Of a stretch of 64,000 nucleotides of DNA, positions 3,998-51,732 are shown piece by piece. Source of the DNA: Undibacterium sp. (GTDB lineage: Bacteria; Pseudomonadota; Gammaproteobacteria; Burkholderiales; Burkholderiaceae_D); the NCBI RefSeq assembly GCF_043726505.1, contig NZ_JAYSKH010000265.1. The stretch is one strand, 5' to 3'. The position numbers and the translations under genes were made by a program. The notes beneath the pieces are model-generated. The model saw only the letters and a program-made list of their open reading frames with translations, did not search any database and had not been told where the DNA came from. How positions within the stretch are numbered: the first letter of the stretch is position 1; each line of letters starts with the position of its first letter.

Positions 3998-4729
3998 ATG
4001 AGCACATCTACTGACAGCGCCCTGGTCCTCTTCAGCGGGGGCCAGGATTCCACCACCTGCCTGGCCTGGGCCTTGTCCCGCTATAGCCGCGTCGAGACCA
4101 TAGGTTTCGACTATGGCCAGCGCCATGCGATAGAACTGACGGTACGGCCCACCTTGCTGGAGAAAATGCGCGGTTTCTCGGCAGACTGGCAACAGAAACT
4201 GGGTGAAGACCACATGATAGATCTGTCGCTGATCTCCCAGCTATCACACACCGCAATGACCGAGGACATCGAAATCGTCATGCAGGAAAACGGCTTGCCA
4301 AATACCTTCGTGCCGGGCCGCAACCTGATGTTCATGATGACGGCAGCCACGTTGGCCTACCGGCGCGGCATCAACGTGCTGGTCGGCGGCATGTGCGAAA
4401 CCGATTTTTCCGGCTATCCGGATTGCCGCGACGATACGATGAAGGCCTTGCAGGTTGCCTTGAACCTGGGCATGGCAACCCGCCTAAAAGTGGAAACGCC
4501 GCTGATGTGGATAGACAAATCGCAGACCTGGGAACTGGCACAGGATCTGGGCGGCGAGGCTCTGGTAGACCTGATCCGCGCCGATACCCATACCTGCTAC
4601 CTCGGCGAGCGCGGCCAGTTGCACGACTGGGGCCACGGCTGCGGCACCTGCCCTGCCTGCGAACTGAGAGCGCGCGGCTACCATCAGTTTGTGGCGAAGA
4701 AAAGCAATAACAAGGTCGCCAAGGAATAA
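3998..4729 (+). CDS. queC: 7-cyano-7-deazaguanine synthase
   Basis: [10 protein letters not shown]-loop, [25 protein letters not shown] zinc motif. Confidence 0.96.
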
Positions 4730-4751
4730 TACAGCCTGTTGCAATGGCGAT

Positions 4752-4792
4752 AAAAAGCCGGGACATGCATAGGCATGTCCCGGCTTTTTTTA
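4752..4792. terminator. Bidirectional intrinsic terminator
   Basis: AAAAAGCCGGGACATGC-ATAG-GCATGTCCCGGCTTTTTTT between the convergent queC and SBP genes. Confidence 0.9.
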
Positions 4793-4843
4793 TGCGGCTA
4801 GGCTGCTGATACGGCAAACCTGCCTATGTGGCAAACCTTCAGT

Positions 4844-5995
4844 TTAGCGCGTGACGGTAATCAGCTCACGCTTGCCGCTCTTGTACGTATATAAGGTCAA
4901 CGTGCCGTCGCGGATATCGCCGTGCTCGTCAAACGCGATATTGCCGGTAATGCCCTTGTACTGGATGCTGGCCAGCGCCGGCAGGTATTTGGCAGGTTCA
5001 GATGATCCCGCTTTCTGCATTGCGGCTACTACCGTCATCACGGCGTCGTAGGCATACGGCGCGTTCAGCACTACAGGGTGGCCGAACTTTTTGCTGAAGT
5101 CGGTTTTGAATTTTTCCAACCCACCTTTCATGCCCTCCTCCACGCCGCCGGCTTCCGCGCAGACAATCTTGCCTTCACCCAGCGCCTCGCCAGCCAGTTT
5201 TGCCAGGTCGGTCGAGCAGATGCCGTCGCCTCCCATGAATTTGGCTTCTATGCCCAGCTGCTGCATCTGGCGCAGCATAGGGCCGCCTACCGCATCCATG
5301 CCGCCGAAGAAAATCAGGTCAGGCTTTTTGCCCTTGATTGTCGTCAGGATGGAGTTGAAATCGGTAGCCTTGTCTGTTGTGTACTGGCGCGGCAGCATCA
5401 ATACGCCTTTTGATTTTCCGGTCGCACCCTTGATGAACTCATCAGCAACGCCCTGTCCGTACGAAGTGCGGTCATCGATGACGGCAATCGTCTTCGCCTG
5501 CGTTACCTGCACTGCATAGCGGCCCAGCGTACCGCCCAGCTGGCCGTCATTGGCGACCACGCGGAACGCCGTATTAAAACCCTGCTGCGTATATTTAGGA
5601 TTGGTGGCAGAAGGAGATATCTGCGGGATGCCGGCGATATTGTAAATTTTAGATGCCGGTATCGTGGTACCCGAATTCATGTGGCCGATGACGGCGTTGA
5701 CCTTGGCGTCCACCAGTTTTTGCGCCGCTGTCGTCGCCTGCTTGGGATCGCTGCCATCGTCTTCCGCTACCAGTTCAAACTTTGCCTTCTTGCCACCTAT
5801 CGAGATATTTTTCGCATTCAGTTCATCGATAGCCATGCGGGCGCCGTCTTCGGTATCCTTGCCCATGTGGGCGGATGGCCCGGACAACGGGCTGACATGG
5901 CCTATCTTGACCAGAAGATCTTCGGCAAACGCACTTCCCTGCCATGCCAGCATGATGGAAGCGACGATGGGTAAAACGCAGATTTTGGCATTCAT
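4844..5995 (-). CDS. Branched-chain amino acid ABC transporter substrate-binding protein (BraC/LivK-like)
   Basis: Signal peptide; KIGHVSPLSGPSAHMG, EDDGSDP, GHMNSG, SPSATNP, DDRTSYGQG. Confidence 0.92.
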   Translation of the reverse strand: MNAKICVLPIVASIMLAWQGSAFAEDLLVKIGHVSPLSGPSAHMGKDTEDGARMAIDELNAKNISIGGKKAKFELVAEDDGSDPKQATTAAQKLVDAKVNAVIGHMNSGTTIPASKIYNIAGIPQISPSATNPKYTQQGFNTAFRVVANDGQLGGTLGRYAVQVTQAKTIAVIDDRTSYGQGVADEFIKGATGKSKGVLMLPRQYTTDKATDFNSILTTIKGKKPDLIFFGGMDAVGGPMLRQMQQLGIEAKFMGGDGICSTDLAKLAGEALGEGKIVCAEAGGVEEGMKGGLEKFKTDFSKKFGHPVVLNAPYAYDAVMTVVAAMQKAGSSEPAKYLPALASIQYKGITGNIAFDEHGDIRDGTLTLYTYKSGKRELITVTR

Positions 5996-36646: not shown

Positions 36647-38452
36647 TTAATCGATGCCGCCGAGGTAGGCTTCCAGCACTGCCGGGTTCTGCTGCACTTG
36701 CTGCGGCAGGCCTTCTGCGATCTTGGTGCCGAATTCCATGACCACCAGATGGTCGGTCAGATTCATCACGAAGTCCATGTCATGCTCAACCAGCAGCACG
36801 CTCATGCCTTCTGCCTTCAGCTTGTTCAGCAGGCTTGCCAGTTCCTGTTTCTCTTTGTAGCGCAAACCCGCGGCAGGTTCATCCAGCAGCAGCAGGCTGG
36901 GGTCGCAGCACAGCGCGCGTGCAATTTCCAGGATGCGTTGCTGGCCCAGCGCCAGGCTGCCGGCTTCTTCATGCAGCATATTGCCCAGGCCAACACGCTC
37001 TAGCTGGCGCTTTGCTTCCAGCAGCAAGGAATCTTCTATCTTCTGGTTGCGGCACAGCACGCTGGAAATGACCTCGCTGATGTCGCCATGCTTGGCGCGC
37101 AGATGGGCGCCTATGGCCACGTTTTCCAGCACACTCATTGTCGGCAGCAGCCGCACATGCTGAAAAGTCCGCCCTATGCCCAGCTTGACGATCTCACGCG
37201 AAGGCAGGCCGCTGATGGGCTGCAGGCTGCCATCGCGCAGGAAGCGTATCGCCCCGGAAGTCAGCGGCAGCACGCCGGTGACAAGATTGAACATCGTTGA
37301 CTTGCCAGCGCCGTTGGGGCCGATTAGCCCTACGATCTGGCCTGCACCGACCTGGAACTGCATGTCGTTGACGGCCACCAGTCCGCCAAACTGCTTGCGT
37401 GCCTGCGCTACTTCCAGGATTACCTTGCCGCTGGCCGGTTTTTCGCGGTGCGGCAGCGGCTGCGCATTATCCGGCACTACGATTTTGCGCGGTGCGGGCA
37501 ACCAGCCTGCAAACAGTTTTGTCAGGTAAGGCCACACGCCATCCCTGGCCCTTTGCAGCAGCAGTATCAGCAGGATACCGAATACGATGATTTCAAAATT
37601 GCCGTTAGCGCCGAGCAGCGCCGGCAAGATGGATTGCAATTTATCTTTCAGCAGTGTCAGCAGCGCCGACCCCAGCAGCGCGCCCCATACATGGCCGGCA
37701 CCGCCCACCACCGCCATGAACAGGTATTCGATACCGGCATTCAGGCCAAAAGGCGTAGGGTTCACCGCGCGCTGCAAATGCGCGTAAAGCCAGCCGGATA
37801 CGCTGGCCAGCATCGCCGCGATAATGAAGATGATCACTTTCATGCGCGCCGTATTAACGCCCATCGCTTCAGCCATCACACCGCCGCCGCGCAGCGCGCG
37901 GATTGCGCGGCCAGGACGGGATTGCAGCAGGTTTTGCACGGCAATCACGGCCAGCAGCAGGATCAGCCAGATCAGCCCATACATGCGGCGGCCGCTGTCC
38001 AGCTTGAAGCCAAAGACATCCACCGGCGGAATGCCGTTCAGACCATCATACTTGCCTAAAAATTCCAGGTTGCCGAACAGGAAAAACAGCGACAGCCCCC
38101 AGGCAATCGTGCCCAACGGCAGATAGTGTCCGGACAGCCGCATCGTGATGACGCCAATCGCATAAGCAGCCAGCATAGTCAGCGCCAGGCCGGCCAGCAG
38201 GCCCAGCCATGGCGACACCCCGAAGCTGGTGGACAGGTAGGCGGTGGAATACGCGCCAAGGCCGACAAAGGCCGCCTGGCCGAAAGAAGTCAGGCCGCCG
38301 ACGCCGGTCAGCAGCACCAGGCCCAGCGCGACAATCGCATACAGGCCTATGTAGTTGGCCAGCGTGATCCAGAATTCAGGCGTAGGCAGCAGCGGCAGCA
38401 AGATGACGGCTGCCAAAAAAATCAGGTAAATACGGTTGATGCCTTGCTTCAT
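36647..38452 (-). CDS. Fused ABC permease + ATPase (LivM-LivG)
   Basis: N-terminal BPD_transp_2 TM domain; C-terminal [23 protein letters not shown]. Confidence 0.93.
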
Positions 38453-39507
38453 TACTCTTCATCCTCATCGCTATGCTTGCTGCTGAGCGAACGCCACAGC
38501 AAGACCGGAATAATCAGCGTAAATACGATCACCTCCTTGTAGGCGCTGGCCCAGAACGACGAGTACGATTCCAGCAAACCGACCAGGATCGCGCCGGCAG
38601 CCGCTACAGGATAACTGACCAGGCCGCCGACGATGGCGCCGACAAAACCCTTCAGGCCGATCAGGAAACCGCCGTCGTAATACACGGTCGTCAGCGGTGC
38701 AATCAGCACACCGCAGAACGCGCCCATCGCTGCCGCCAGCGTAAAGGCCAGGCGGCCCGCCTGCGTGGTGCCGATACCGACCAGCTGCGCGCCCAAGCGG
38801 TTCACCGCCGTCGCCCGCAAGGCCTTGCCGGACAGCGTGCGTTCAAAATAGAAATACAGGCCGGCGATCAGCGCGGCCGACACGCCGATGATCACCAGGC
38901 TCTGGCCGGAAATGGACATCGCACCCAGTTCAAAACGCGCGTCGGAAAACGGCGTCGTGCGTGAACCTTCGGCGCCGAACATCACCAGCCCTATGCCGGT
39001 CAGCGCATAATGAACGCCGACCGAGACAATCAGCAGCACCAGCGTGCTGGCTTCGGCCAGCGGCTGATAGGCGAGCCGGTAAATCATCGGCCCCATCGGG
39101 ATCACGGTCACCAGCGCCAACACCACCTGCGCATACAGCGGCCAGTTCTGCACCGGCAGGTTGTGCGTGGCAAACCACAGGCCCGCAGGCAGCACCAGGA
39201 ACTTCAGCGCGGAGATACCGGCTTCAGCGCCAAAGCGCGCACTGCGCTGCTTGGCACGCAGCATGGAAACTATTTCCTGCACAAAGCTGAGCGCGCCCAG
39301 CGCGACCAGCAGCGTGATCGAATGCGGGAATTTGCCGGACTGTATCGCCGCCAGCGTCAGCGCGCCGAAAGCGACAAACTCACCCTGCGGTATAAAAATA
39401 ACGCGGGTAACTGAAAACACCAGCACCAGCGCCAGCGCCAGCAGCGCATAGATCGCTCCACTGGTAATGCCGTCCTGGGCCAGGATGGCGGCAATTGATA
39501 AATCCAT
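38452..39507 (-). CDS. ABC transporter permease (LivH-like)
   Basis: [39 protein letters not shown]. Confidence 0.93.
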
Positions 39508-39554
39508 ACTTTAGCGTCCTGTCCTGCAATATCGTTGCATGGTGTTGAATATGA

Positions 39555-39608
39555 CTGATGTAACTGATGTGGTTGATGTAACTGATGAAGCTGATGAAGC
39601 TGATGAAG
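39555..39608. repeat. Six degenerate 9-bp tandem units
   Basis: CTGATGTAA CTGATGTGG TTGATGTAA CTGATGAAG CTGATGAAG CTGATGAAG. Confidence 0.9.
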
Positions 39609-39654
39609 CTGAGCGAGCGGGATAAAACCAGATTGAACAAGCGAGCAACCGCTT

Positions 39655-39681
39655 AAAAAAGGGGAGCCATCGCTCCCCCTT
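39655..39681 (-). terminator. Intra-operon terminator after the substrate-binding protein gene
   Basis: AAAAAAGGGGAGC-CATC-GCTCCCCCTT. Confidence 0.8.
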
Positions 39682-39709
39682 CTTGATCTTGTCAGCAACA
39701 AAGATGCGA

Positions 39710-40873
39710 TCAGTTCGCCTTGCCCAGCAGTTTCCATTTGCCGTTGACGATTTCCACCATCACGCGAGAACGCTGGTCCAGACCCAGATGGTCGGTAGCG
39801 CTCATGTTGACGATACCGTGCGAAGTCGGCAGGTTAGTGATGTTTTCCAGCGCGGTACGCAGCGCGGCACGGAATTCCTTGGTGCCGGGCTCGCCTTTTT
39901 TCAGCGCAACGGGAATCGCTGCTTCCAGCAACAGGCCGGAATCCCACGCGTGGCCGCCGAAAGTGGAAATGGAGCCGGCGCCGTAGGCTTTTTCATACGC
40001 AGCCAGATAACGCATCGACGATTTCTTGACCGGGTTGTCGGCAGGCAGCTGTTCTGCGACCAGCAATGGGCCGGCTGGCAGGAAAGTGCCTTCGCAGTCT
40101 TTGCCGCATACGCGCAGGAAGTCATTATTGGCAATGCCATGGGTCTGATAGATCTTGCCCTTGTAGCCGCGCTCTTTCAGCGTTTTTTGCGGCAGCGCAG
40201 CAGGCGTGCCGGAACCGGCGATCAGCACCGCATCCGGATTGGACGACATGATCTTCAGGATCTGGCCGGTAACCGATGTATCGGTGCGGGCAAAACGCTC
40301 ATTGGCCACAATCTTCAGCTTGCGCACATCGGCCAGCTTGGAAAATTCCTTGTACCAGCCTTCGCCGTATGCATCGTTAAAGCCAATGAAGGCAATCGTC
40401 TTGATGCCGGCATCGCTCATGTGACCGGTAATGGCAGTCGCCATGTGGGAATCGTTCTGCGGTGTCTTGAATACCCAGAAACGCTTGGAATCGACAGGCA
40501 ATACAATTGTAGAAGATGCCGCCATCGAAATCATCGGCACTTCATTCTCGGCAGCAACATCAATCATCGCCAGCGAATTCGGTGTGACGGTAGAGCCGAT
40601 CAGCGCATCGATCTTGTCTTCGGCGATCATCTTGCGCGCGTTCTTTACCGCTGTCGTGGTATCAGACGCATCATCGAGAACGATGTATTCGACTTTCTTG
40701 CCGGCGATTTCCTTGGGCAGCAGCGCAAAGGTGTTTTTCTCTGGAATGCCCAGCGAGGCAGCGGGGCCGGTGGCGGATACGTTAACGCCTATCTTGATCT
40801 GGGCCGACGCATTTGACGCCATCACCAGGGATAGCAGCGCAGGTAGCAAAGCGAACACAAACTTCTTCTTCAT
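39710..40873 (-). CDS. ABC substrate-binding protein, aromatic-acid-binding type (RPA1789/CouP-like)
   Basis: TGPAASLGIPE, LDDASD, ERFARTDTSVTGQ, GTPAALPQKTLKERGY..IYQTHG, GLDQRSR; motif pattern recalled from R. palustris CouP-like proteins. Confidence 0.8.
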   Translation of the reverse strand: MKKKFVFALLPALLSLVMASNASAQIKIGVNVSATGPAASLGIPEKNTFALLPKEIAGKKVEYIVLDDASDTTTAVKNARKMIAEDKIDALIGSTVTPNSLAMIDVAAENEVPMISMAASSTIVLPVDSKRFWVFKTPQNDSHMATAITGHMSDAGIKTIAFIGFNDAYGEGWYKEFSKLADVRKLKIVANERFARTDTSVTGQILKIMSSNPDAVLIAGSGTPAALPQKTLKERGYKGKIYQTHGIANNDFLRVCGKDCEGTFLPAGPLLVAEQLPADNPVKKSSMRYLAAYEKAYGAGSISTFGGHAWDSGLLLEAAIPVALKKGEPGTKEFRAALRTALENITNLPTSHGIVNMSATDHLGLDQRSRVMVEIVNGKWKLLGKAN

Positions 40874-40929: not shown

Positions 40930-41230
40930 TTAATTACCCAAGTGTAGCCTTTCCTACCGGATGACACAACTGGAGGCCGAATTTTTGCCGCCATTTTGCA
41001 CAGCAAGCCAAATTACCGGACAGACATAGTGCGCTGAATACAGATATCCAGGCTATCCGACATATTTTGCATATTCTTAAAAAATTTTGTTCTATGCTGT
41101 AAGTTATCCTGAATTGGCCCGACAGATGCATAAGTCGATGCAGCAGGATATAGAAGAAGAGATCCACTGCAGCGCACTTATGACGCATGTCCATCCGAAG
41201 AGCCACACTTTTACATCACTGGAGAATACA

Positions 41231-41494
41231 ATGAAACAAGCTATCCAAACTGGCGCAATGATCGCCATCGCCGCAGCTACAATGGCCCTGTCTGGCGCTT
41301 CCTTCGCTGCCGACAGCGCTGCCAGCACAGCCAAAGTACACTGCTCCGGCATCAACAGCTGCAAAGGCACAGCAGAATGCAAAACTGCAGAAAACGCCTG
41401 CAAAGGTCAAAATTCCTGCAAAGGCCATGGTTTTGTCAGCACCACAGCAGCAGAATGCAAAGCACAAAACGGCAAAGTCATCGACGCCAAGTAA
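41231..41494 (+). CDS. bufA: Bufferin-type RiPP precursor (BufA2-like): Sec signal plus 6-Cys core
   Basis: GGAGA RBS; signal ...ASFA; core VHCSGINSCKGTAECKTAENACKGQNSCKGHGF...AECK with repeated CKG motifs; directly upstream of DUF692. Confidence 0.85.
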   Translation: MKQAIQTGAMIAIAAATMALSGASFAADSAASTAKVHCSGINSCKGTAECKTAENACKGQNSCKGHGFVSTTAAECKAQNGKVIDAK

Positions 41495-41577
41495 TATTTA
41501 CCCGGTAGCACTTTCTTCTGTTAGTCGGACTATGCATAGGCCCCCTCAGGCATAGGCTGATCGGAGAAACGGCATTC

Positions 41578-41611
41578 GGTGCGCCGGCGTCATTGCCGGC
41601 GCACCTTTTTT
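41578..41611 (+). terminator. Intrinsic terminator between precursor and MNIO gene
   Basis: GGTGCGCCGGC-GTCATT-GCCGGCGCACC-TTTTTT. Confidence 0.88.
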
Positions 41612-41632
41612 CATTTAGGCGAACATTTCCGC

Positions 41633-42502
41633 ATGCATACTATGACTGCTCCCGCTGCTTCACCCGGTTTCGGCCTTGGCCTGCGCACCGCGCATTACCA
41701 TGAAATCCTGGCGCAACAGCAGCCCGTGGACTGGTTTGAAATTCTGTCGGAAAACTATATGGTGCCGGGCGGCAAACCGCTGGCAATGCTGGACAGCATA
41801 AGGCAGGACTACCCGATGGTCATGCATGGCGTATCCATGTCGATAGGTACGCCGGAAGGCCCGGACGAAAGCTATCTGCACGACCTGAAAAAACTGATGC
41901 AGCGCGTGCAGCCGCTATGGGTATCGGACCACTTGTGCTGGACCGGCGTGCACGGCAAGAATATGCACGACCTGCTTCCACTGCCGTACACCGAAGAAAC
42001 GGTGAAGCTGGTCGCGGCCAACGTCCGCCGCGTGCAAGATTACCTGGAGCGCCCGCTGGTGCTGGAAAACGTCTCCAGCTATCTGTCCTTCAACAGTGAC
42101 AGCATGCCGGAATGGGAGTTCGTCACGGCGGTGGCGGAAGAATCCGACAGCCTGATCCTGCTGGACGTGAACAATATCTACGTCAGCAGCTTCAACCACG
42201 GTTTTGATCCGCTGACCTATCTCGAAGGCATACCGCAGGGACGGGTACAGCAGATCCATCTGGCCGGGCACAGCCATCATGGCACACACATTATTGATAC
42301 GCATGATCACCCGGTGGTTGACCCAGTGTGGCAGCTGTATGCTGCCGCATTGCGCCGTTTCGGCCAGGTCGCCAGTATGATAGAACGCGACGACAATATT
42401 CCGCCATTGGCGGAGCTTGTTACCGAACTGGGCGTTGCGCGTACTATCGCTGCCGGCGTACTTGCAGAACAGCAGGCACAGCACACGGAGGCGTACGCAT
42501 GA
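41633..42502 (+). CDS. bufB: DUF692 multinuclear non-heme iron-dependent oxidative enzyme (MNIO, BufB-like)
   Basis: [58 protein letters not shown]. Start is 41633 or 41642. Confidence 0.93.
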
Positions 42503-43305
42503 GCGTTCCGGCCAACAATACGCAGCAGCTACAGGACAAGTTTCAGCAATACGTGATGGGCACGGATACTGCACATGCGACCCAGCCCGCCATACTAGGT
42601 GATATCAGGGAACAATTCGGCCTGCCCGCCAAAGACCGGCTGGCAATTTATTATGACGCCTACCGGCTGCGCATACGCGATGCGCTGGCCGATGCCTTTG
42701 GCAATACGCACGGCTATCTGGGCGACGATATGTTCTACGCATTCTGCTACGACTATATCGACACCCATCCTTCGCAGCTGCGCAACCTGCGCTGGTACGG
42801 CGCACACTTCCCAGCCTTCCTGGCGGAGCGGCTGCCGGCCCACCCTGTCGTTGCAGAACTGGCGGCATTTGAATGGACACTGGGCCTGGCCTTTGACGCT
42901 GAGGACCAGCCTGTGCTGGCGCTGGAGGAGCTGCGCGCATTGGCGCCGGAAGACTGGGAAGGACTGGGTTTTGAATGCCACCCCTCCCTGCATTTCCTCG
43001 ATATGCAATGGAACGCGGTCGCAATCTGGCTCGCATTGAGCGAAGAGCAGGAACCTCCCGCTGCGGAACAAGGGACGAGTACGTCGTGGCTGGTATGGCG
43101 CAAGGATTTGCAGGCGCATTTCCGTTCGCTGGCGGATGAAGAACGCGATGCCTTGCGCGGACTCAATGCGGGCAGTAGCTTTTCCGACGTGTGCGCGATG
43201 GCGGCAGATACTAATCCTGAGATCACGCCGCAGATTGCAGGCTGGCTGCAAACCTGGCTCAACAATGAAATGCTGAGTCGCTTACGGCGGCAAAGCGCAG
43301 CCTAG
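42499..43305 (+). CDS. bufC: DUF2063 MNIO partner protein (BufC/HvfC-like)
   Basis: [32 protein letters not shown]; ATGA overlap with DUF692. Confidence 0.88.
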
Positions 43306-43366
43306 GCTTCTTGTTCCTCCTTCTTGCTCCTTCTTCTTGTTTGGCCTTCTTTTTGCGCCTGCCTGC

Positions 43367-45283
43367 TTACCGCGGCAGGCCGCCGAAAATCACTTCCACG
43401 TCGAACGCACCGCGCAGCGCATTGCATAGCATCACGCGATCTGCGTTGCGCAAATCTTCCAGCGTCGCCTGCTCTTCGCTCAGCCGGAATACCGGGTCGT
43501 CCATCAGCACGCTGCGCATCACGCCCGGCAACACACCATCTGACAACGGTGGCGTGGTCCAGCGTCCGTCTTTTTGCAGCAGCACATTGGTGCGCCCGCC
43601 TTCGGTCAGATAGCCGTGTTCATTGAAGAACAGCATATCGAAAGCACCCTGCTTTTCTGCGTCGCGCCATGCGCTGTCATAGCGGTGGCGCACCGTGGTT
43701 TTGTGGCGCAGGAAGAGATCGCTGCCGGTAGTGTTATCCGCCGCCAGCAGCACGCTGATTTTATTTTGCAGCGGCTGCAGCATGGCGCTGGTGACATCAA
43801 TGTCACCAGCAGCCTGCAACGCCAGCCGCACGCGGTAGGCGCCTTCGCCTGCCAGCCCAACGCGCAGTTGTTCCAGCCTGTTGCGAATTGCATCTTCATC
43901 AAAGGCAAACCCAAAATACACGGCCGACGCGTGCAAACGCTGCAAATGCCGTTCCAGGTAGCGGCAGCCGTCCTGCTGCGTTGCCTGCATGGTCTCGAAC
44001 AGGCTGAATTGTGCAGGCAGCCCAGTCAGGAAGCCTGCCTTTAGCCGGCACTCGGCATATTCATCGGCAGCTACGCTGTCATAGACGATACCGGCACCCA
44101 CGCCCAGCACGCCGCGGCGAATATCCGCCGCTTTGGCGGCATCGGATGCAGGCGGCTGCAGGTGCAGCGTGCGTATCGGCACCGACAGGCAAAAATCGCC
44201 TATGCTGCGGCCTTCCACAGGCGGATCGAACCAGCCTATGCCGCCGGTATATAAACCACGCGGCTCACTCTCCAGTTCACGGATGATCTGCATCGTCCTG
44301 CGCTTGGGCGCGCCGGTAATGGAGCCGCAGGGATAGAGAGCGGACAGGATCGCATGCAGACCCAGCTCCGGCTTCAGCTCTGCTTGCACTGTAGACGTCA
44401 TCTGCAGCACGCTGGAAAAGCGCGTGACATCGAACAGGCGCGGCACGCGTACGCTGCCGGTTTTTGCGATGCAGCCCAGATCGTTTCTCAGCAGATCCAC
44501 GATCATCAGGTTTTCTGCGCGGTTCTTGGCATCTGCAGCAAGCGCGGTAGACCGGCGAAGGTCTTCTTGCGCATCACCACTGGCGGCAGCGGTACCTTTC
44601 ATTGGCCGGGCGGTCAGCATGCCGGCGGCATGCTGGACAAACAGCTCGGGCGATAGCGACAGCACAGCCTCGCCGCCCGGCAATACGATCAGCGCACCAT
44701 ACGGCACCGGCTGGCGCTGGCGCAGCCGCCGGTACAGCGCCTGCGGTGATCCGTAAGCATCAAAATGCAGGCGGTATGTATAGTTGACCTGGTAGGTGTC
44801 GCCAGCAGCGATATAGGCCTGCACCTGTGCAATGGCTGCTGTGAAAGCGGCTGCATCGACGCTAGGGCGCACGCCGGCAATCCCGGCGACTTCGTTACCG
44901 CTATTGGCTTCAGCCTGCGCATCCAGCCAGGCCTGCACTTGTGCCGCCGTCATCTGCTCGCAACGGGCAAACAACAGCATTCTGGATGGCTGCTCGACCA
45001 GTGTGCCGGCGGCATCATTGAAGGGCACTGCATGCAGGCGCGCACCGGTGTCGTACGACAGCAGCGCCACCGCATAGGCGCCTTGCTGTACTGCCGCCTG
45101 TGTTTGCACCAGCATGTTTTCCCACGAGGCGGCATCACTGCATTCCAGCATATGGGTCAACTGCGTGTACAGGCGGGATGTCGCAGAGGAAGCTTCGGAC
45201 TGTGCATCGTCCAGCAAGGCAAAACAATCCACTGAATGACGGGAACCTGAAGAGGAAATGAGTAGGGCAGACGATGAAGGCAC
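43367..45283 (-). CDS. pabB: Aminodeoxychorismate synthase component I fused to class IV aminotransferase/ADC lyase (PabB-PabC)
   Basis: YQVNYT, SPELF, PMKGT, KNRAENLMIVDLLRNDL, GSITGAPK; C-terminal RHKTT, EGGRTN, LPGVMR. Confidence 0.9.
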   Translation of the reverse strand: MPSSSALLISSSGSRHSVDCFALLDDAQSEASSATSRLYTQLTHMLECSDAASWENMLVQTQAAVQQGAYAVALLSYDTGARLHAVPFNDAAGTLVEQPSRMLLFARCEQMTAAQVQAWLDAQAEANSGNEVAGIAGVRPSVDAAAFTAAIAQVQAYIAAGDTYQVNYTYRLHFDAYGSPQALYRRLRQRQPVPYGALIVLPGGEAVLSLSPELFVQHAAGMLTARPMKGTAAASGDAQEDLRRSTALAADAKNRAENLMIVDLLRNDLGCIAKTGSVRVPRLFDVTRFSSVLQMTSTVQAELKPELGLHAILSALYPCGSITGAPKRRTMQIIRELESEPRGLYTGGIGWFDPPVEGRSIGDFCLSVPIRTLHLQPPASDAAKAADIRRGVLGVGAGIVYDSVAADEYAECRLKAGFLTGLPAQFSLFETMQATQQDGCRYLERHLQRLHASAVYFGFAFDEDAIRNRLEQLRVGLAGEGAYRVRLALQAAGDIDVTSAMLQPLQNKISVLLAADNTTGSDLFLRHKTTVRHRYDSAWRDAEKQGAFDMLFFNEHGYLTEGGRTNVLLQKDGRWTTPPLSDGVLPGVMRSVLMDDPVFRLSEEQATLEDLRNADRVMLCNALRGAFDVEVIFGGLPR

Positions 45284-49319: not shown

Positions 49320-49889
49320 ATGACATCTAGCGAAACACTTTACTTGCAACTGGAGGCGATGCGCCCCGCGCTGTTGCGCTTTGCCCTGCTGCAATTACGC
49401 AACGACACACTTGCCGAAGACGCCGTGCAGGATGCATTGCTGGCAATTCTGGAAAAACCGGACAATTTTGCCGGCCAGTCTTCATTGCGGACTTATGTCA
49501 TAGGCATCCTGAAATACAAAATCATCGATTGCCTACGCGCCTCAAGCAAGGAAAAACAGTTGCAGACCGAAGATGATGAATCCGAGGCCGACCTGATCGA
49601 CAGCCTGTTTTCCGCCGACGGCCATACCAACGAAATGCCAAGGGCCTGGGGCGACCCGGATGCGACGCTGGAACAGAAGGATTTTTTCCGTGTCATGGAG
49701 GTATGCCTGGAAAAGTTGCCGGCCAAGACTGCGCGGGTTTTCTTGATGCGCGAGTGGCTGGATTTGGATACCGAAGAAATTTGTAAGGAATTGCAGCTGA
49801 CTACGTCTAACGTATGGGTAGTTCTGTACCGCGCACGCTTGCGGCTGCGGGAATGCCTGGATTTGAACTGGTTCGGCAAACAAGCCTAA
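49320..49889 (+). CDS. ECF sigma-70 factor (TIGR02943-like)
   Basis: AEDAVQDALL, SSLRTYVIGILKYKIID, VFLMREWL, EEICKEL..TTSNVWVVLYRARLRLRECL. Confidence 0.9.
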   Translation: MTSSETLYLQLEAMRPALLRFALLQLRNDTLAEDAVQDALLAILEKPDNFAGQSSLRTYVIGILKYKIIDCLRASSKEKQLQTEDDESEADLIDSLFSADGHTNEMPRAWGDPDATLEQKDFFRVMEVCLEKLPAKTARVFLMREWLDLDTEEICKELQLTTSNVWVVLYRARLRLRECLDLNWFGKQA

Positions 49890-49911
49890 TGATATAAATT
49901 GCAGGAAATAT

Positions 49912-50115
49912 ATGCTGATTCGACTCACATGCAAGGAAGCACACCAGATAGTCTCCGAGGGCCTGGACCGGGACCTCGGCGTATTCGTGCGCACACGGCT
50001 GCGCCTGCACCTCAGCGTGTGCGACGCTTGTACCAATTTTAACGGACAGATGCAGACCATACGCCAGGCGATGCAGAAAATGAAATTTGAAGATCCGTTT
50101 TCGCCGGAACCCTAA
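49912..50115 (+). CDS. Soluble zinc-finger anti-sigma factor (zf-HC2/ZAS)
   Basis: TCKEA...HLSVCDAC (HxxxCxxC); 67 aa, no TM; follows the ECF sigma. Confidence 0.9.
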   Translation: MLIRLTCKEAHQIVSEGLDRDLGVFVRTRLRLHLSVCDACTNFNGQMQTIRQAMQKMKFEDPFSPEP

Positions 50116-50151: not shown

Positions 50152-50373
50152 ATGAGTACTTGTCCGCGCTGCAACGCGCAATTTACCTGCTGCATGGCAG
50201 GCCAGACCGGCAAGGATTGCTGGTGCGGCGCCATGCCCAGACTCAGCCTGGCAGACTTGCCAGCTACCCGTATCGCTATCCCGCAGGACGCCAGCTGCTA
50301 CTGCCCTGACTGCCTGCGCGCATGGAAGGCGGAGCGGGACGCCGCCGCGCAAAACTCCACCCAAAATCCATAA
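50152..50373 (+). CDS. Cysteine-rich CWC family protein
   Basis: CPRC...CC...CWC...CYCPDC; 9 Cys in 73 aa. Confidence 0.85.
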   Translation: MSTCPRCNAQFTCCMAGQTGKDCWCGAMPRLSLADLPATRIAIPQDASCYCPDCLRAWKAERDAAAQNSTQNP

Positions 50374-50525: not shown

Positions 50526-51227
50526 ATGCCTACCAACCTGACTCCAGTCGATACGCCCATCCCTATTTCCCAACGCATACGCGAACGCATACAGGCGAAA
50601 AAAACGCGCTTCCATGCAAACGACAATATCGCGCAATTCATCGAGCCGGGCGAACTGGACCAGTTGCTGGACGAAGTGGAACAAAAACTGAAGGGCGTGC
50701 TGCAAAGCCTCGTCATCGATACCGACAGCGACCACAATACGCAGGACACTGGCCGCCGGGTCGCCAAGATGTTCATCAATGAGGTGTTCAAGGGCCGTTA
50801 TGTGCCGATGCCGGCCGTCACCGAATTCCCAAATGCGTCACGCCTGAACGAACTGATGATCATCGGCCCTATCACGGTACGCAGCGCCTGCTCGCACCAC
50901 CTGTGCCCAATTATCGGCAAGGTATGGATAGGCGTGATGCCGAATGAGCACTCAAACCTGATCGGCCTGTCCAAATATGCGCGCATCGCCGAGTGGATCA
51001 TGAGCCGGCCGCAGATACAGGAAGAGGCGGTCGTGCAGCTGGCTGACACGCTGCAGGAAAAGATGCACCCGGATGGCCTGGCCGTCGTCATGGAAGCGGA
51101 CCATTTCTGCATGCACTGGCGCGGCGTGAAAGACATGGACGCCAAGATGATCAACAGCGTAATGCACGGCTCCTTCCTCAAGGATCCGAACCTGCGCCGC
51201 GAATTCCTGGCGCTGATCAAGCGCTAG
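50526..51227 (+). CDS. folE: GTP cyclohydrolase I (zinc-dependent FolE type)
   Basis: DTGRRVAKMF, SACSHHLCP, GLSKYAR, RPQIQE, HFCMHWRGV. Confidence 0.95.
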   Translation: MPTNLTPVDTPIPISQRIRERIQAKKTRFHANDNIAQFIEPGELDQLLDEVEQKLKGVLQSLVIDTDSDHNTQDTGRRVAKMFINEVFKGRYVPMPAVTEFPNASRLNELMIIGPITVRSACSHHLCPIIGKVWIGVMPNEHSNLIGLSKYARIAEWIMSRPQIQEEAVVQLADTLQEKMHPDGLAVVMEADHFCMHWRGVKDMDAKMINSVMHGSFLKDPNLRREFLALIKR

Positions 51228-51306: not shown

Positions 51307-51732
51307 ATGCTAGTCAGATTACTTTACGCCAGCCGTGCCGCAGACAAGAAGCTCTGCGACGTGATCGCCGACATCATGCAGCAGTCGCGCACGCATAACC
51401 CGAAGAACGGCATCACCGGCATACTGTGCCATAGTGACAGTGTGTTCATGCAGGTACTGGAAGGCGGGCGTGACGCCGTCAATACGCTGTATGCGCAGAT
51501 ACTGAAGGATCAGCGCCATACCGACGTGATACTGCTGCACTATGAAGAAATCATGGAGCGGCGCTACAGCGGCTGGACCATGGGCCAGGCCAACCTGGGC
51601 AAGATTAATCCATCCATTCTGCTGAAGTATTCCGACCTGCCTGAGCTGAACCCGCATGCGATGTCGGGCAAGATGTCGCTGGCGCTGGTGGAAGAGCTGA
51701 TCGCCACCGCGTCCATCGTCGGACGGACTTGA
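51307..51732 (+). CDS. Stand-alone BLUF blue-light photoreceptor
   Basis: LLYAS (Tyr), SRTHNPKNGITGIL (Asn), FMQVLEG (Gln), DQRH, WTMG (Trp/Met); no output domain. Confidence 0.93.
   Translation: MLVRLLYASRAADKKLCDVIADIMQQSRTHNPKNGITGILCHSDSVFMQVLEGGRDAVNTLYAQILKDQRHTDVILLHYEEIMERRYSGWTMGQANLGKINPSILLKYSDLPELNPHAMSGKMSLALVEELIATASIVGRT

Follow-up and report, generated by a model that had tools for sequence, protein, structure and literature searches.

A Probable Buf2-Type Bufferin Operon, bufA2-bufB-bufC, in Undibacterium sp.

Results

Gene Content and Layout of the Locus

We analyzed a 64-kb stretch of DNA (hereafter, the window) that contains a candidate RiPP locus with the following features.

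41099..41123, plus strand: predicted ECF (sigma-F-like) promoter, GTAAG (-35)-N16-CGAC (-10), a conserved upstream block
41231..41494, plus strand: bufA2, 87-aa precursor, stop codon at 41492-41494; identified by NCBIfam model and alignment
41578..41613, plus strand: terminator-like hairpin followed by TTTTTT, between bufA2 and bufB; found by consensus scan
41633..42502, plus strand: bufB, MNIO (DUF692) maturase, 289 aa; PF05114, NF050167
42499..43305, plus strand: bufC, DUF2063 partner (PME type 1), 268 aa; PF09836
43367-45283, minus strand: pabB-pabC fusion (Chorismate_bind and Aminotran_4); profile matches

A previous sequence-only reading had described an 87-aa six-Cys precursor, a DUF692 enzyme, an ATGA-coupled DUF2063 protein, and a convergent pabB-pabC gene, and each of these features is present at the coordinates it gave. 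The start codon of bufC overlaps the stop codon of bufB at ATGA (42499-42502), through which bufC is predicted to be translationally coupled to bufB. Of the 80 loci fetched, 65 have the A-B-C order on one strand, and in 29 of these bufB and bufC overlap by the same 4 nt. The pabB-pabC gene converges on bufC with a stop-to-stop gap of 61 nt. The profile searches proposed in the earlier reading placed the precursor above the BufA2 cut-off and assigned the DUF692 protein to PF05114 and its partner to PF09836. Because the curated family models were passed by wide margins, the locus lies far beyond chance.

Clustering of ORFs of at least 90 aa across the A-B-C loci revealed no recurrent gene 3′ of bufC beyond close relatives. 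Synteny with Undibacterium is not conserved, and pabBC lies near the cluster in L014 and L017 only. An exact-protein look-up for wider context returned a single 3.5-kb contig, and an Rfam scan of the 64-kb window identified no RNA family. We also considered a horizontal-transfer island; the base composition of the locus is unremarkable.

The Precursor Is a BufA2 Family Member

The N-terminus of the precursor reads MKQAIQTGAMIAIAAATMALSGASFA, followed after the predicted signal-peptide cut by ADSAAS... By inspection, residues 1-26 (41231-41308) have the n-h-c layout of a signal peptide, with K2, hydrophobic residues 8-22, and S-F-A ahead of A27. A hydrophobic N-terminus is common to BufA2 homologues, some of which carry a lipobox instead (alignment A1). 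The predicted core comprises 61 aa (residues 27-87; 41309-41491) with six Cys residues (C38, C44, C50, C57, C63, and C76) and three CKG motifs. The Sec-exported precursor described earlier, with a six-Cys core and NSCKG, NACKG, and NSCKG motifs, was found as claimed, with the signal peptide judged by inspection.

The precursor scores 98.9 bits against the NCBIfam BufA2 equivalog NF050166 (cut-off 60), matching profile positions 1-78 of 79. Across 26 diverse homologues (alignment A1), the six Cys residues, the three CKG motifs, and an HGF motif do not vary, and six Cys residues are reported in 90% of Buf2 precursors (PMC12452194). In this alignment, the six-Cys core and CKG motifs read as hallmarks of the family, not oddities of the window locus. 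A Pfam search gave no match of the precursor to PF10048 (Buf1, DUF2282) at E ≤ 0.01, EGKCG repeats of the oxazolin type are absent from the precursor, and a PDB sequence search returned no match for BufA2 or BufC. The BufA2 family comprises at least 1193 homologous clusters, and the locus is an ordinary member of this described and very widespread family.

BufB and BufC Match Bufferin Maturation Enzymes

BufB matches PF05114 (MbnB_TglH_ChrH) with E = 1.6e-111 and scores 380.8 bits against NCBIfam NF050167 (MNIO_BufB), for which the cut-off is 310. It falls below the cut-offs of the rival NCBIfam models HvfB (269 bits, cut-off 360), ApyH, MbnB (61.5 bits, cut-off 325), and ChrH. Because the BufB equivalog cut-off is passed and those of the rival MNIO models are not, placement in a non-bufferin clade, the outcome that would have counted against the earlier reading, is not indicated.

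The metal ligands of the DUF692 protein, previously described as intact, are so: all nine iron ligands of BufB (H65, H100, E145, D178, N181, H209, D222, H224, and E251) align with those of MbnB (His54, His90, Glu133, Asp163, Asn166, His192, Asp208, His210, and Glu239; reference residues from PMC9060507), and they are kept in 68-69 of 69 related enzymes. The catalytic Asp (D253) is present within ERDDN, which spans residues 251-255, and is itself conserved. The next residue, D254, is shared by 66 of 69 BufA2-linked enzymes. The published determinant of the Cys-Lys group contrasts BufB2-Asp251 with FonB-Phe250 (PMC13097082), and D254 of BufB matches this substrate determinant, with the catalytic Asp followed by Asp instead of Phe. 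The closest solved structure to BufB is 3BWW (E = 7e-44).

BufC matches PF09836 (DUF2063) over residues 10-108, its N-terminal part, with 66.7 bits (cut-off 27.2). A Buf2 partner would also be expected to carry an RRE-like domain at its C-terminus, on which the PDB sequence search with BufC gave no hit. Its match to the HvfC model is weak (36 bits) and below the cut-off of 142. With a BufA2 precursor, a BufB MNIO, and a DUF2063 partner, the original assignment to a bufferin-type RiPP locus is borne out.

Lack of DoxX Is the Usual Condition in BufA2 Loci

The absence of a DoxX gene next to bufC, as noted previously, extends to the whole 64-kb window, in which jackhmmer, started from two DoxX proteins verified with Pfam, matched no ORF and the best tblastn E-value for DoxX was 0.78. 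A membrane-ORF filter retained LysE and DUF423 (both Pfam-confirmed) as the only small multi-TM ORFs. The sequence-only reading took this absence as the mark of a reduced or split variant whose product is uncharacterised, on the premise that bufferin loci usually include DoxX and an ECF sigma/anti-sigma pair. That premise is typical of Buf1, not Buf2: sigma/NrsF genes are reported in Buf1 and not in Buf2 clusters (PMC12452194), and the founding C. vibrioides buf2 operon (CCNA_02999-03001) is without a bufD1-like gene (PMC11626156). Because DoxX is absent from the founding buf2 operon and, within 8 kb, from 57 of the 65 related A-B-C loci (∼88%), it is no membership criterion for Buf2.

A reduced or split bufferin would require DoxX, and perhaps the sigma/anti-sigma pair, to be functional elsewhere in the genome and the product to differ from described bufferins. 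Consistent with such a reading, the window, which set the scope of our search, is devoid of DoxX, and a minority of BufA2 loci do have the gene, either within the operon (L048, L051, and L056) or divergent beside sigF-nrsF (L036, L045, L066, L068, and L071). However, neither the prevalence of DoxX nor the precursor favors it. Across MNIO loci as a whole, just 40% come with DoxX (PMC12452194, supplement), and DoxX is dispensable for modification and function even in Buf1 (PMC11626156). The precursor is a textbook BufA2 and not a divergent one. The founding buf2 product, for its part, has been characterized experimentally and has a 61-residue, six-Cys core as in the window (PMC11626156). We consider a reduced or split system quite improbable, and the variant with an uncharacterised product proposed in the earlier reading is not supported.

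A Putative ECF Promoter Precedes bufA2

The bufA2 ATG is preceded, at a distance of 108 nt, by a GTAAG-N16-CGAC motif that corresponds to a conserved block in the aligned upstream regions of Oxalobacteraceae relatives. This is its sole match in the 64-kb window, where 0.6 would be expected by chance, so that the single occurrence is not significant alone. Support for the promoter comes instead from recurrence across loci: of 79 loci, 31 carry GTAA[GC]-N15-17-CGA[ACT] within the 400 nt before bufA2, versus ∼1.4 expected (chance rate, 0.018 per 430 nt). In C. crescentus, sigma-F recognizes GTAACC-N16-CGAA and directs transcription of CC2907-06-05, that is, buf2ABC (PMC3511200). We infer that GTAAG-N16-CGAC may function as an ECF promoter of bufA2. 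In related loci, the same motif precedes a gene for a thioredoxin-like DUF1223 protein and gnd-zwf.

The window contains no sigF-nrsF pair. An ECF sigma factor (49320-49889) and a 66-aa anti-sigma factor of the zinc-finger type (HxxxCxxC) are encoded at 49320-50114, 6 kb downstream of the locus, and a 41%-identical pair directly adjoins bufC in Methylobacter (L008). We examined this sigma factor as the bufA2 regulator, and the link is unproven because the GTAAG-N16-CGAC motif is missing upstream of the sigma gene both in the window and in L008. A tentative and rather doubtful proposal is that an undescribed ECF regulon of small size, marked by tGTAAG(G/T)-N15/16-CGACt, unites beta- and gammaproteobacterial Buf2 operons with DUF1223 and, in Methylobacter, gnd-zwf, and that the regulator here might be the ECF/zinc-finger pair at 49320-50114 and not SigF-NrsF.

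A Terminator-Like Hairpin and RNA Contigs at the Locus

The hairpin between bufA2 and bufB has a 12-bp stem with 10 G-C pairs and a 4-nt loop, and the predicted fold of the intergenic RNA has an energy of −53.4 kcal/mol (z = −3.6). A cruder scan of 69 related loci detected comparable hairpins in 16. The hairpin is probably a leaky attenuator. RNA contigs from two metatranscriptomes cover bufA2; these are assembled environmental contigs from a near-identical strain and are neither strand-resolved nor quantitative. One (41143-41625, one mismatch) reaches from the promoter to the terminator and leaves the flanking genes uncovered, and a second (41598-41747) runs on into bufB.

The RNA also bears on the possibility of a remnant that is silent or decaying and has no function. 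No regulator adjoins it, and its neighbors are unrelated housekeeping genes (a liv-type ABC transporter and pabBC), as might be expected of a remnant. Nevertheless, none of the three ORFs is disrupted, no catalytic or ligand residue has been lost, the base composition is normal, a 97.7%-identical relative retains the locus, and both metatranscriptomes contain bufA2 RNA. A functionless remnant is extremely improbable.

Discussion

Proposed Pathway

We conclude that the locus is very probably a complete, canonical Buf2-type operon, bufA2-bufB-bufC, or a "Cys-Lys" captophorin under the more recent naming. The pathway below follows the founding buf2ABC, in which four central Cys residues each lose 4 Da, CysI and CysVI form a disulfide, the product absorbs at 305 nm, and expression is induced by copper (PMC11626156); modification, the number of modified Cys residues, the disulfide, and metal binding are all assigned here by homology.

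Under metal or oxidative stress, a sigma-F-type ECF sigma factor encoded elsewhere would probably start transcription at GTAAG-N16-CGAC. The strong but leaky hairpin after bufA2 may then leave more precursor mRNA than enzyme mRNA, a disparity toward which the RNA contigs point weakly. A BufB-BufC complex would act on the precursor in the cytoplasm, with BufC recognizing the substrate and BufB holding the multi-iron center. C44, C50, C57, and C63 would each be converted to a 5-thiooxazole by a four-electron oxidation, as in C. vibrioides Buf2 (−16 Da, ∼305 nm), and the modification of several Cys residues suggested previously is, by the same homology, probable. Asp254, beside the catalytic Asp253, is likely to contact the Lys after each of these Cys residues, as judged from published modeling and mutagenesis. 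Sec export would be followed by removal of the signal peptide after A26 and, by homology, formation of a C38-C76 disulfide. The folded 61-residue peptide could then sequester periplasmic copper. This proposed mechanism would need no DoxX.

Physiological Metal

The physiological metal of the window locus is uncertain. The Caulobacter sigma-F regulon also answers to chromate and cadmium, and buf mutants have no Cr or Cd phenotype (PMC3511200). The same thiooxazole chemistry could serve mainly to handle another soft metal (Au, Cd, Hg, or Ag) or to counter periplasmic oxidative or chlorine stress instead of buffering copper. Several observations are in keeping with such a role: chromate, dichromate, and cadmium each raise expression of the sigma-F regulon, of which CC2907-05 is part (PMC3511200); Azospira SigF/NrsF answers to hypochlorite (PMC4436054); published discussion ties bufferin-type clusters to gold and mercury (PMC12452194); the promoter motif is shared with the DUF1223 gene and gnd-zwf in related loci; and a cation-efflux gene lies between bufA2 and bufB in L042. 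In opposition, Cu induces bufA2 in Caulobacter but Fe, Zn, and Mn do not, and buf2 aids growth in the presence of copper (PMC11626156). In addition, the characterized relatives all bind copper (PMC13097082). On balance, we regard a main role other than copper buffering as unlikely.

Implications

The correct annotation of bufA2-bufB-bufC is a BufA2-family periplasmic metallophore, an MNIO bufferin maturase, and a DUF2063 partner. The locus merits no flag as an unusual variant and has little import beyond annotation. Two by-products of the analysis are the quantitation of DoxX absence, at ∼88% of sampled BufA2 clusters, and an ECF-type promoter signature with a precursor-proximal terminator, which could guide work on Buf2 regulation outside Alphaproteobacteria.

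Comparison with Known Systems

The closest counterpart is C. vibrioides buf2ABC (CCNA_03001-02999 = CC2907-CC2905; bufferin 2), which has the A-B-C order of the window and likewise lacks both DoxX and a neighboring sigma/anti-sigma pair. The two share a Sec signal peptide, a 61-residue core, six Cys residues with Cys-Lys motifs, and an MNIO with Asp after the catalytic Asp. Caulobacter was absent from the matches listed, and Buf2 membership is judged here from the NCBIfam equivalog and from what has been published on Caulobacter buf2. The buf2 promoter, GTAACC-N16-CGAA, is of the ECF type, and GTAAG-N16-CGAC in the window is a variant of it. The window differs in its host, an Oxalobacteraceae-like betaproteobacterium from a metagenome, and in having a strong hairpin terminator between A and B.

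C. vibrioides buf1ABCD with sigF-nrsF (bufferin 1, DUF2282) and Cupriavidus gig share with the window type the MNIO and DUF2063 pair, export of the precursor by Sec, modification to thiooxazoles, and the sequestering of copper. In Buf1, the precursor contains four Cys residues and belongs to PF10048, whereas the window precursor has six and no PF10048 match. Buf1 loci commonly have DoxX and sigma/NrsF genes, and the window has neither DoxX nor sigF-nrsF.

In the Lys-Cys captophorins, namely oxazolin (hvfABC and DoxX, H. influenzae), fontiphorin, and gonophorin, an MNIO-PME1 pair puts 5-thiooxazoles on an exported Cys-rich peptide, as in the Buf2 type. Their substrates contain EGKCG repeats with Lys before Cys, in contrast to the CKG motifs of the window precursor, which has no EGKCG. 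In the MNIO of this group, to which 3BWW belongs, the catalytic Asp is followed by Phe (3BWW, ERDFN), whereas in the window BufB it is followed by a second Asp (ERDDN). Methanobactin MbnABC has the same MNIO fold and iron ligands and also turns Cys into a heterocycle that binds copper, but differs in its oxazolone/thioamide product, its leader peptide in place of a Sec signal, and its partner protein, MbnC.

Gene Content and Family Assignment

The buf operon and the other features of the window discussed here are as follows.

36647-40873, minus strand: liv-type ABC transporter and its binding protein, upstream of the buf operon
41099-41123, plus strand: predicted ECF-type promoter
41231-41494, plus strand: bufA2, 87-aa precursor
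41633-42502, plus strand: bufB, 289 aa; PF05114 (MbnB_TglH_ChrH), E = 1.6e-111 (Pfam)
42499-43305, plus strand: bufC, 268 aa; PF09836 (DUF2063), 66.7 bits (Pfam)
43367-45283, minus strand: pabB-pabC fusion, 638 aa; Chorismate_bind and Aminotran_4 (Pfam)
49320-49889, plus strand: ECF sigma factor, 6 kb from the buf operon
49914-50114, plus strand: 66-aa soluble zinc-finger anti-sigma factor with LHLSVCDAC (HxxxCxxC)
50152-50373: small Cys-rich CWC protein
50526-51227, plus strand: GTP cyclohydrolase I
51307-51732: BLUF photoreceptor

At its N-terminus the bufA2 product is organized like a Sec signal peptide, with Lys2, hydrophobic residues from 8 to 22, and Ser-Phe-Ala ahead of Ala27. The 61-residue core that follows has six Cys (C38, C44, C50, C57, C63, and C76), three of which lie within NSCKG, NACKG, and NSCKG motifs. 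A 138-nt spacer leads to bufB, whose TGA overlaps the bufC ATG as ATGA, and the convergent pabB-pabC gene ends 61 bases past bufC. The sequence-only reading had described a 6-Cys precursor, a DUF692 gene, a coupled DUF2063 gene, and convergent pabB-pabC; because gene coordinates and Pfam assignments agree, every one of these elements is correct to the base.

Our family call rests on the curated equivalog models of NCBIfam. The precursor matches "BufA2 family periplasmic bufferin-type metallophore" over its full length (98.9 bits, cut-off 60), and the enzyme scores 380.8 bits against BufB, "MNIO family bufferin maturase" (cut-off 310), while remaining below the cut-offs for HvfB (269 vs 360), ApyH, MbnB, and ChrH. 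The assignment of DUF692 to a non-bufferin MNIO clade, named beforehand as grounds for rejecting a bufferin locus, does not apply, because the BufB model is passed and the four others are failed. Gene content and curated-model membership are direct observations, and these models settle the family assignment of precursor and enzyme. NCBI's current family models would give the locus its name automatically.

A large protein collection contains at least 1193 clusters homologous to the precursor, and among the matches listed the nearest named homologues come from Undibacterium, Telluria, and other Burkholderiales. Across 26 diverse aligned precursors, the six Cys, three CKG motifs, VHC, HGF, and a TAEN stretch vary little or not at all; the 6-Cys core and repeated CKG are a family signature and not special to this locus. 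Many close homologues (P0004, P0006, P0007, and others) are ~150 aa long; they probably represent the duplicated form with 12 Cys, to which 10% of Buf2 precursors are reported to belong.

Operon Layout and DoxX

An iterative search seeded with two Pfam-confirmed DoxX proteins from fetched loci found no DoxX in the 64-kb window; the lack of an adjacent DoxX gene had been noted from the sequence. The earlier interpretation, a reduced or split variant missing its usual DoxX and ECF sigma/anti-sigma companions, assumed a gene set that is typical of Buf1 and not of Buf2 loci. The founding buf2 operon of Caulobacter vibrioides (CCNA_02999-03001) "lacks a bufD1-like gene", bufD1 being the DoxX-type gene of buf1, and DoxX is dispensable both for Buf1 modification and for the copper phenotype (PMC11626156). 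Sigma and NrsF genes are reported in Buf1 clusters and not in Buf2 clusters, the precursor has six Cys in 90% of Buf2 cases, and only 40% of all MNIO loci have DoxX (PMC12452194 and its supplement).

We scanned one genome per species, obtaining at least 564 confirmed BufA2 loci, and analyzed the best 80 of these with flanks of up to 8 kb. In this sample, 65 of the 80 loci carry A-B-C on the same strand, a directly observed conserved layout, and the iterative search placed DoxX in only 9/80. DoxX is absent from the fetched DNA of 57 of the 65 A-B-C loci, is absent in 45 of the 52 whose flanks reach 2 kb or more on each side, and lies inside the operon in only 3/65; among the genes that follow bufC in the A-B-C loci, no family is shared beyond close relatives. 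Because the founding operon lacks DoxX, Buf1 modification does not need it, and 57/65 A-B-C loci are without it in the fetched DNA, the "reduced or split" description is unsupported, and A-B-C without DoxX is the standard Buf2 layout.

Other arrangements occur among the fetched loci (L numbers). An orphan bufA2, with bufB and bufC absent nearby, was seen in 11 of the best 80. A cation-efflux (CDF) gene lies between bufA2 and bufB in a Methyloversatilis MAG (L042 7503-8201, plus strand), and DoxX lies between bufB and bufC in a Cellvibrionaceae MAG (L056 9221-9673, plus strand), both unusual layouts. In Sphingomonas and Steroidobacteraceae, sigF-nrsF immediately precedes bufA2 and runs in the same direction (L018 188-1542; L036 966-2788; L045 6686-7923; L066 4846-6161; all plus). 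A divergent DoxX often lies upstream of the pair (L036, L045, L066, and also L071, where nrsF is ~2.6 kb from bufA2). The layouts of L018, L036, L045, and L066 temper the published claim that Buf2 clusters have no sigma/NrsF genes.

Catalytic Residues and Enzyme Subtype

The iron ligands of MbnB are His54, His90, Glu133, Asp163, Asn166, His192, Asp208, His210, and Glu239 (PMC9060507). HMMER alignments with solved MNIOs give H65, H100, E145, D178, N181, H209, D222, H224, and E251 as their counterparts in BufB. The window enzyme has all nine, and they are conserved in 68-69 of 69 BufA2-linked enzymes, in keeping with the intact DUF692 metal ligands noted earlier; the intact catalytic residues are likewise observed directly. 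Cys-Lys MNIOs have Asp directly after the catalytic Asp, where Lys-Cys enzymes have Phe, as in BufB2-Asp251 and FonB-Phe250 (PMC13097082). The corresponding motif is ERDDN (D253, D254) in the window enzyme and ERDFN in 3BWW, a Lys-Cys enzyme; D254 is kept in 66/69 relatives. Judged by the ERDDN motif, the conservation of D254, and the published Asp/Phe rule, the enzyme fits its Cys-Lys substrate.

Promoter Motif and Candidate Regulators

When the window and six Oxalobacteraceae relatives are aligned over the region 5' of bufA2, one conserved block stands out, (t)GTAAG(T/G)-about 16 nt-CGAC(t/a)GA, which in the window lies at 41099-41123 and is the predicted promoter. The 400 nt preceding bufA2 contain GTAA[GC]-N15-17-CGA[ACT] in 31/79 loci (from the best 80 of at least 564), against ~1.4 expected at a background of 0.018 per 430 nt; within the window alone, one match vs 0.6 expected is not significant. 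The classical form, GTAAC-N16-CGAA, is found in alphaproteobacterial and sigF-nrsF-linked loci and GTAAG...CGAC in beta- and gammaproteobacterial loci, where the form upstream of bufA2 is tGTAAG(G/T)-N15/16-CGACt (the window; L002-L011, L014, L015, L028, L030, L031, L034, L040, L044, L057, L073, L075, L081). In C. crescentus, the experimentally defined sigma-F site, GTAACC-N16-CGAA, drives CC2907-CC2906-CC2905, which is buf2ABC, and sigF-nrsF adjoins buf1 (PMC3511200). Because the window motif, itself directly observed, resembles this site, the operon is probably under a distant ECF sigma factor, as in Caulobacter.

The sigma/anti-sigma pair at 49320-50114 does not belong to the NrsF type, nor was the GTAAG motif found upstream of it. 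In Methylobacter svalbardensis (L008), bufC is followed directly by a 41%-identical sigma factor (4360-4932) with an 80-aa ZAS anti-sigma (4111-4353), both on the minus strand. The window pair may have a regulatory connection to bufA2.

In Methylophilaceae, a DUF1223 gene convergent to bufC (L007 10152-11057, minus strand; homologues in L009, L028, and L031) encodes a secreted, thioredoxin-like protein with a CSSC motif. GTAAG-N16-CGAC also precedes this gene, suggesting co-regulation with the bufA2 operon, and precedes gnd-zwf in L008 (6365-6389).

Intergenic Hairpin and RNA

The bufA2-bufB gap contains a terminator-like hairpin with a GC-rich stem of 12 bp and a T6 run behind it (41578-41613), and the fold of the RNA from this gap has z = -3.6; a cruder scan found comparable hairpins in 16/69 loci. 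Leaky terminators near the precursor gene are a common route in RiPP operons to more precursor than enzyme. In a freshwater-sediment metatranscriptome, a 483-nt contig spans 41143-41625 with one mismatch, starting ~20 nt past the -10 element and stopping just beyond the T-run, and a second, thinner contig (41598-41747) extends into bufB; the genes flanking the operon are uncovered in these contigs. A groundwater metatranscriptome covers 41227-41409. The hairpin and the presence of this RNA in nature are observed directly. These contigs (sequencing runs X4 and X18) are evidence of expression and agree with the predicted transcript unit; because they are assembled and come from a near-identical strain, their ends are not proof of the unit's ends.

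Genomic Surroundings

Base composition is ordinary across the locus, and no Rfam family is present in the window. Downstream of the operon lie pabBC, a CHASE8-GGDEF protein, a TetR-like gene, a HAD hydrolase, and an amino-acid kinase. The pabB-pabC fusion (aminodeoxychorismate synthase and lyase) and GTP cyclohydrolase I, both of folate synthesis, are <7 kb apart. Between the stop codons of the convergent genes bufC and pabBC, in a gap of 61 nt, lies a CT-rich 13-nt tandem repeat, CTTCTTGTTCCTC (43306-43360, about 2.7 copies), with one extra unit in a 97.7%-identical relative (run X3). A 9/18-nt repeat, CTGATGAAG (39555-39612, about 6.4 copies), is intergenic between the liv-type permease and binding-protein genes.

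Proposed Maturation and Comparison with Caulobacter buf2

By homology, BufB-BufC would act in the cytoplasm, oxidizing C44, C50, C57, and C63 to 5-thiooxazoles. The modified peptide would then be exported by Sec with cleavage after A26, C38 and C76 would form a disulfide, and the mature peptide would sequester periplasmic copper. The reduced Caulobacter buf2 product shows -16 Da, made up of -4 Da on each of the four central Cys. Its CysI and CysVI are unmodified and probably disulfide-bonded, and it absorbs at 305 nm; its precursor has a 61-residue core and six Cys, the same as the window precursor (PMC11626156). The locus is a real and ordinary member of the Buf2/Cys-Lys captophorin family, with the A-B-C architecture of the founding example.
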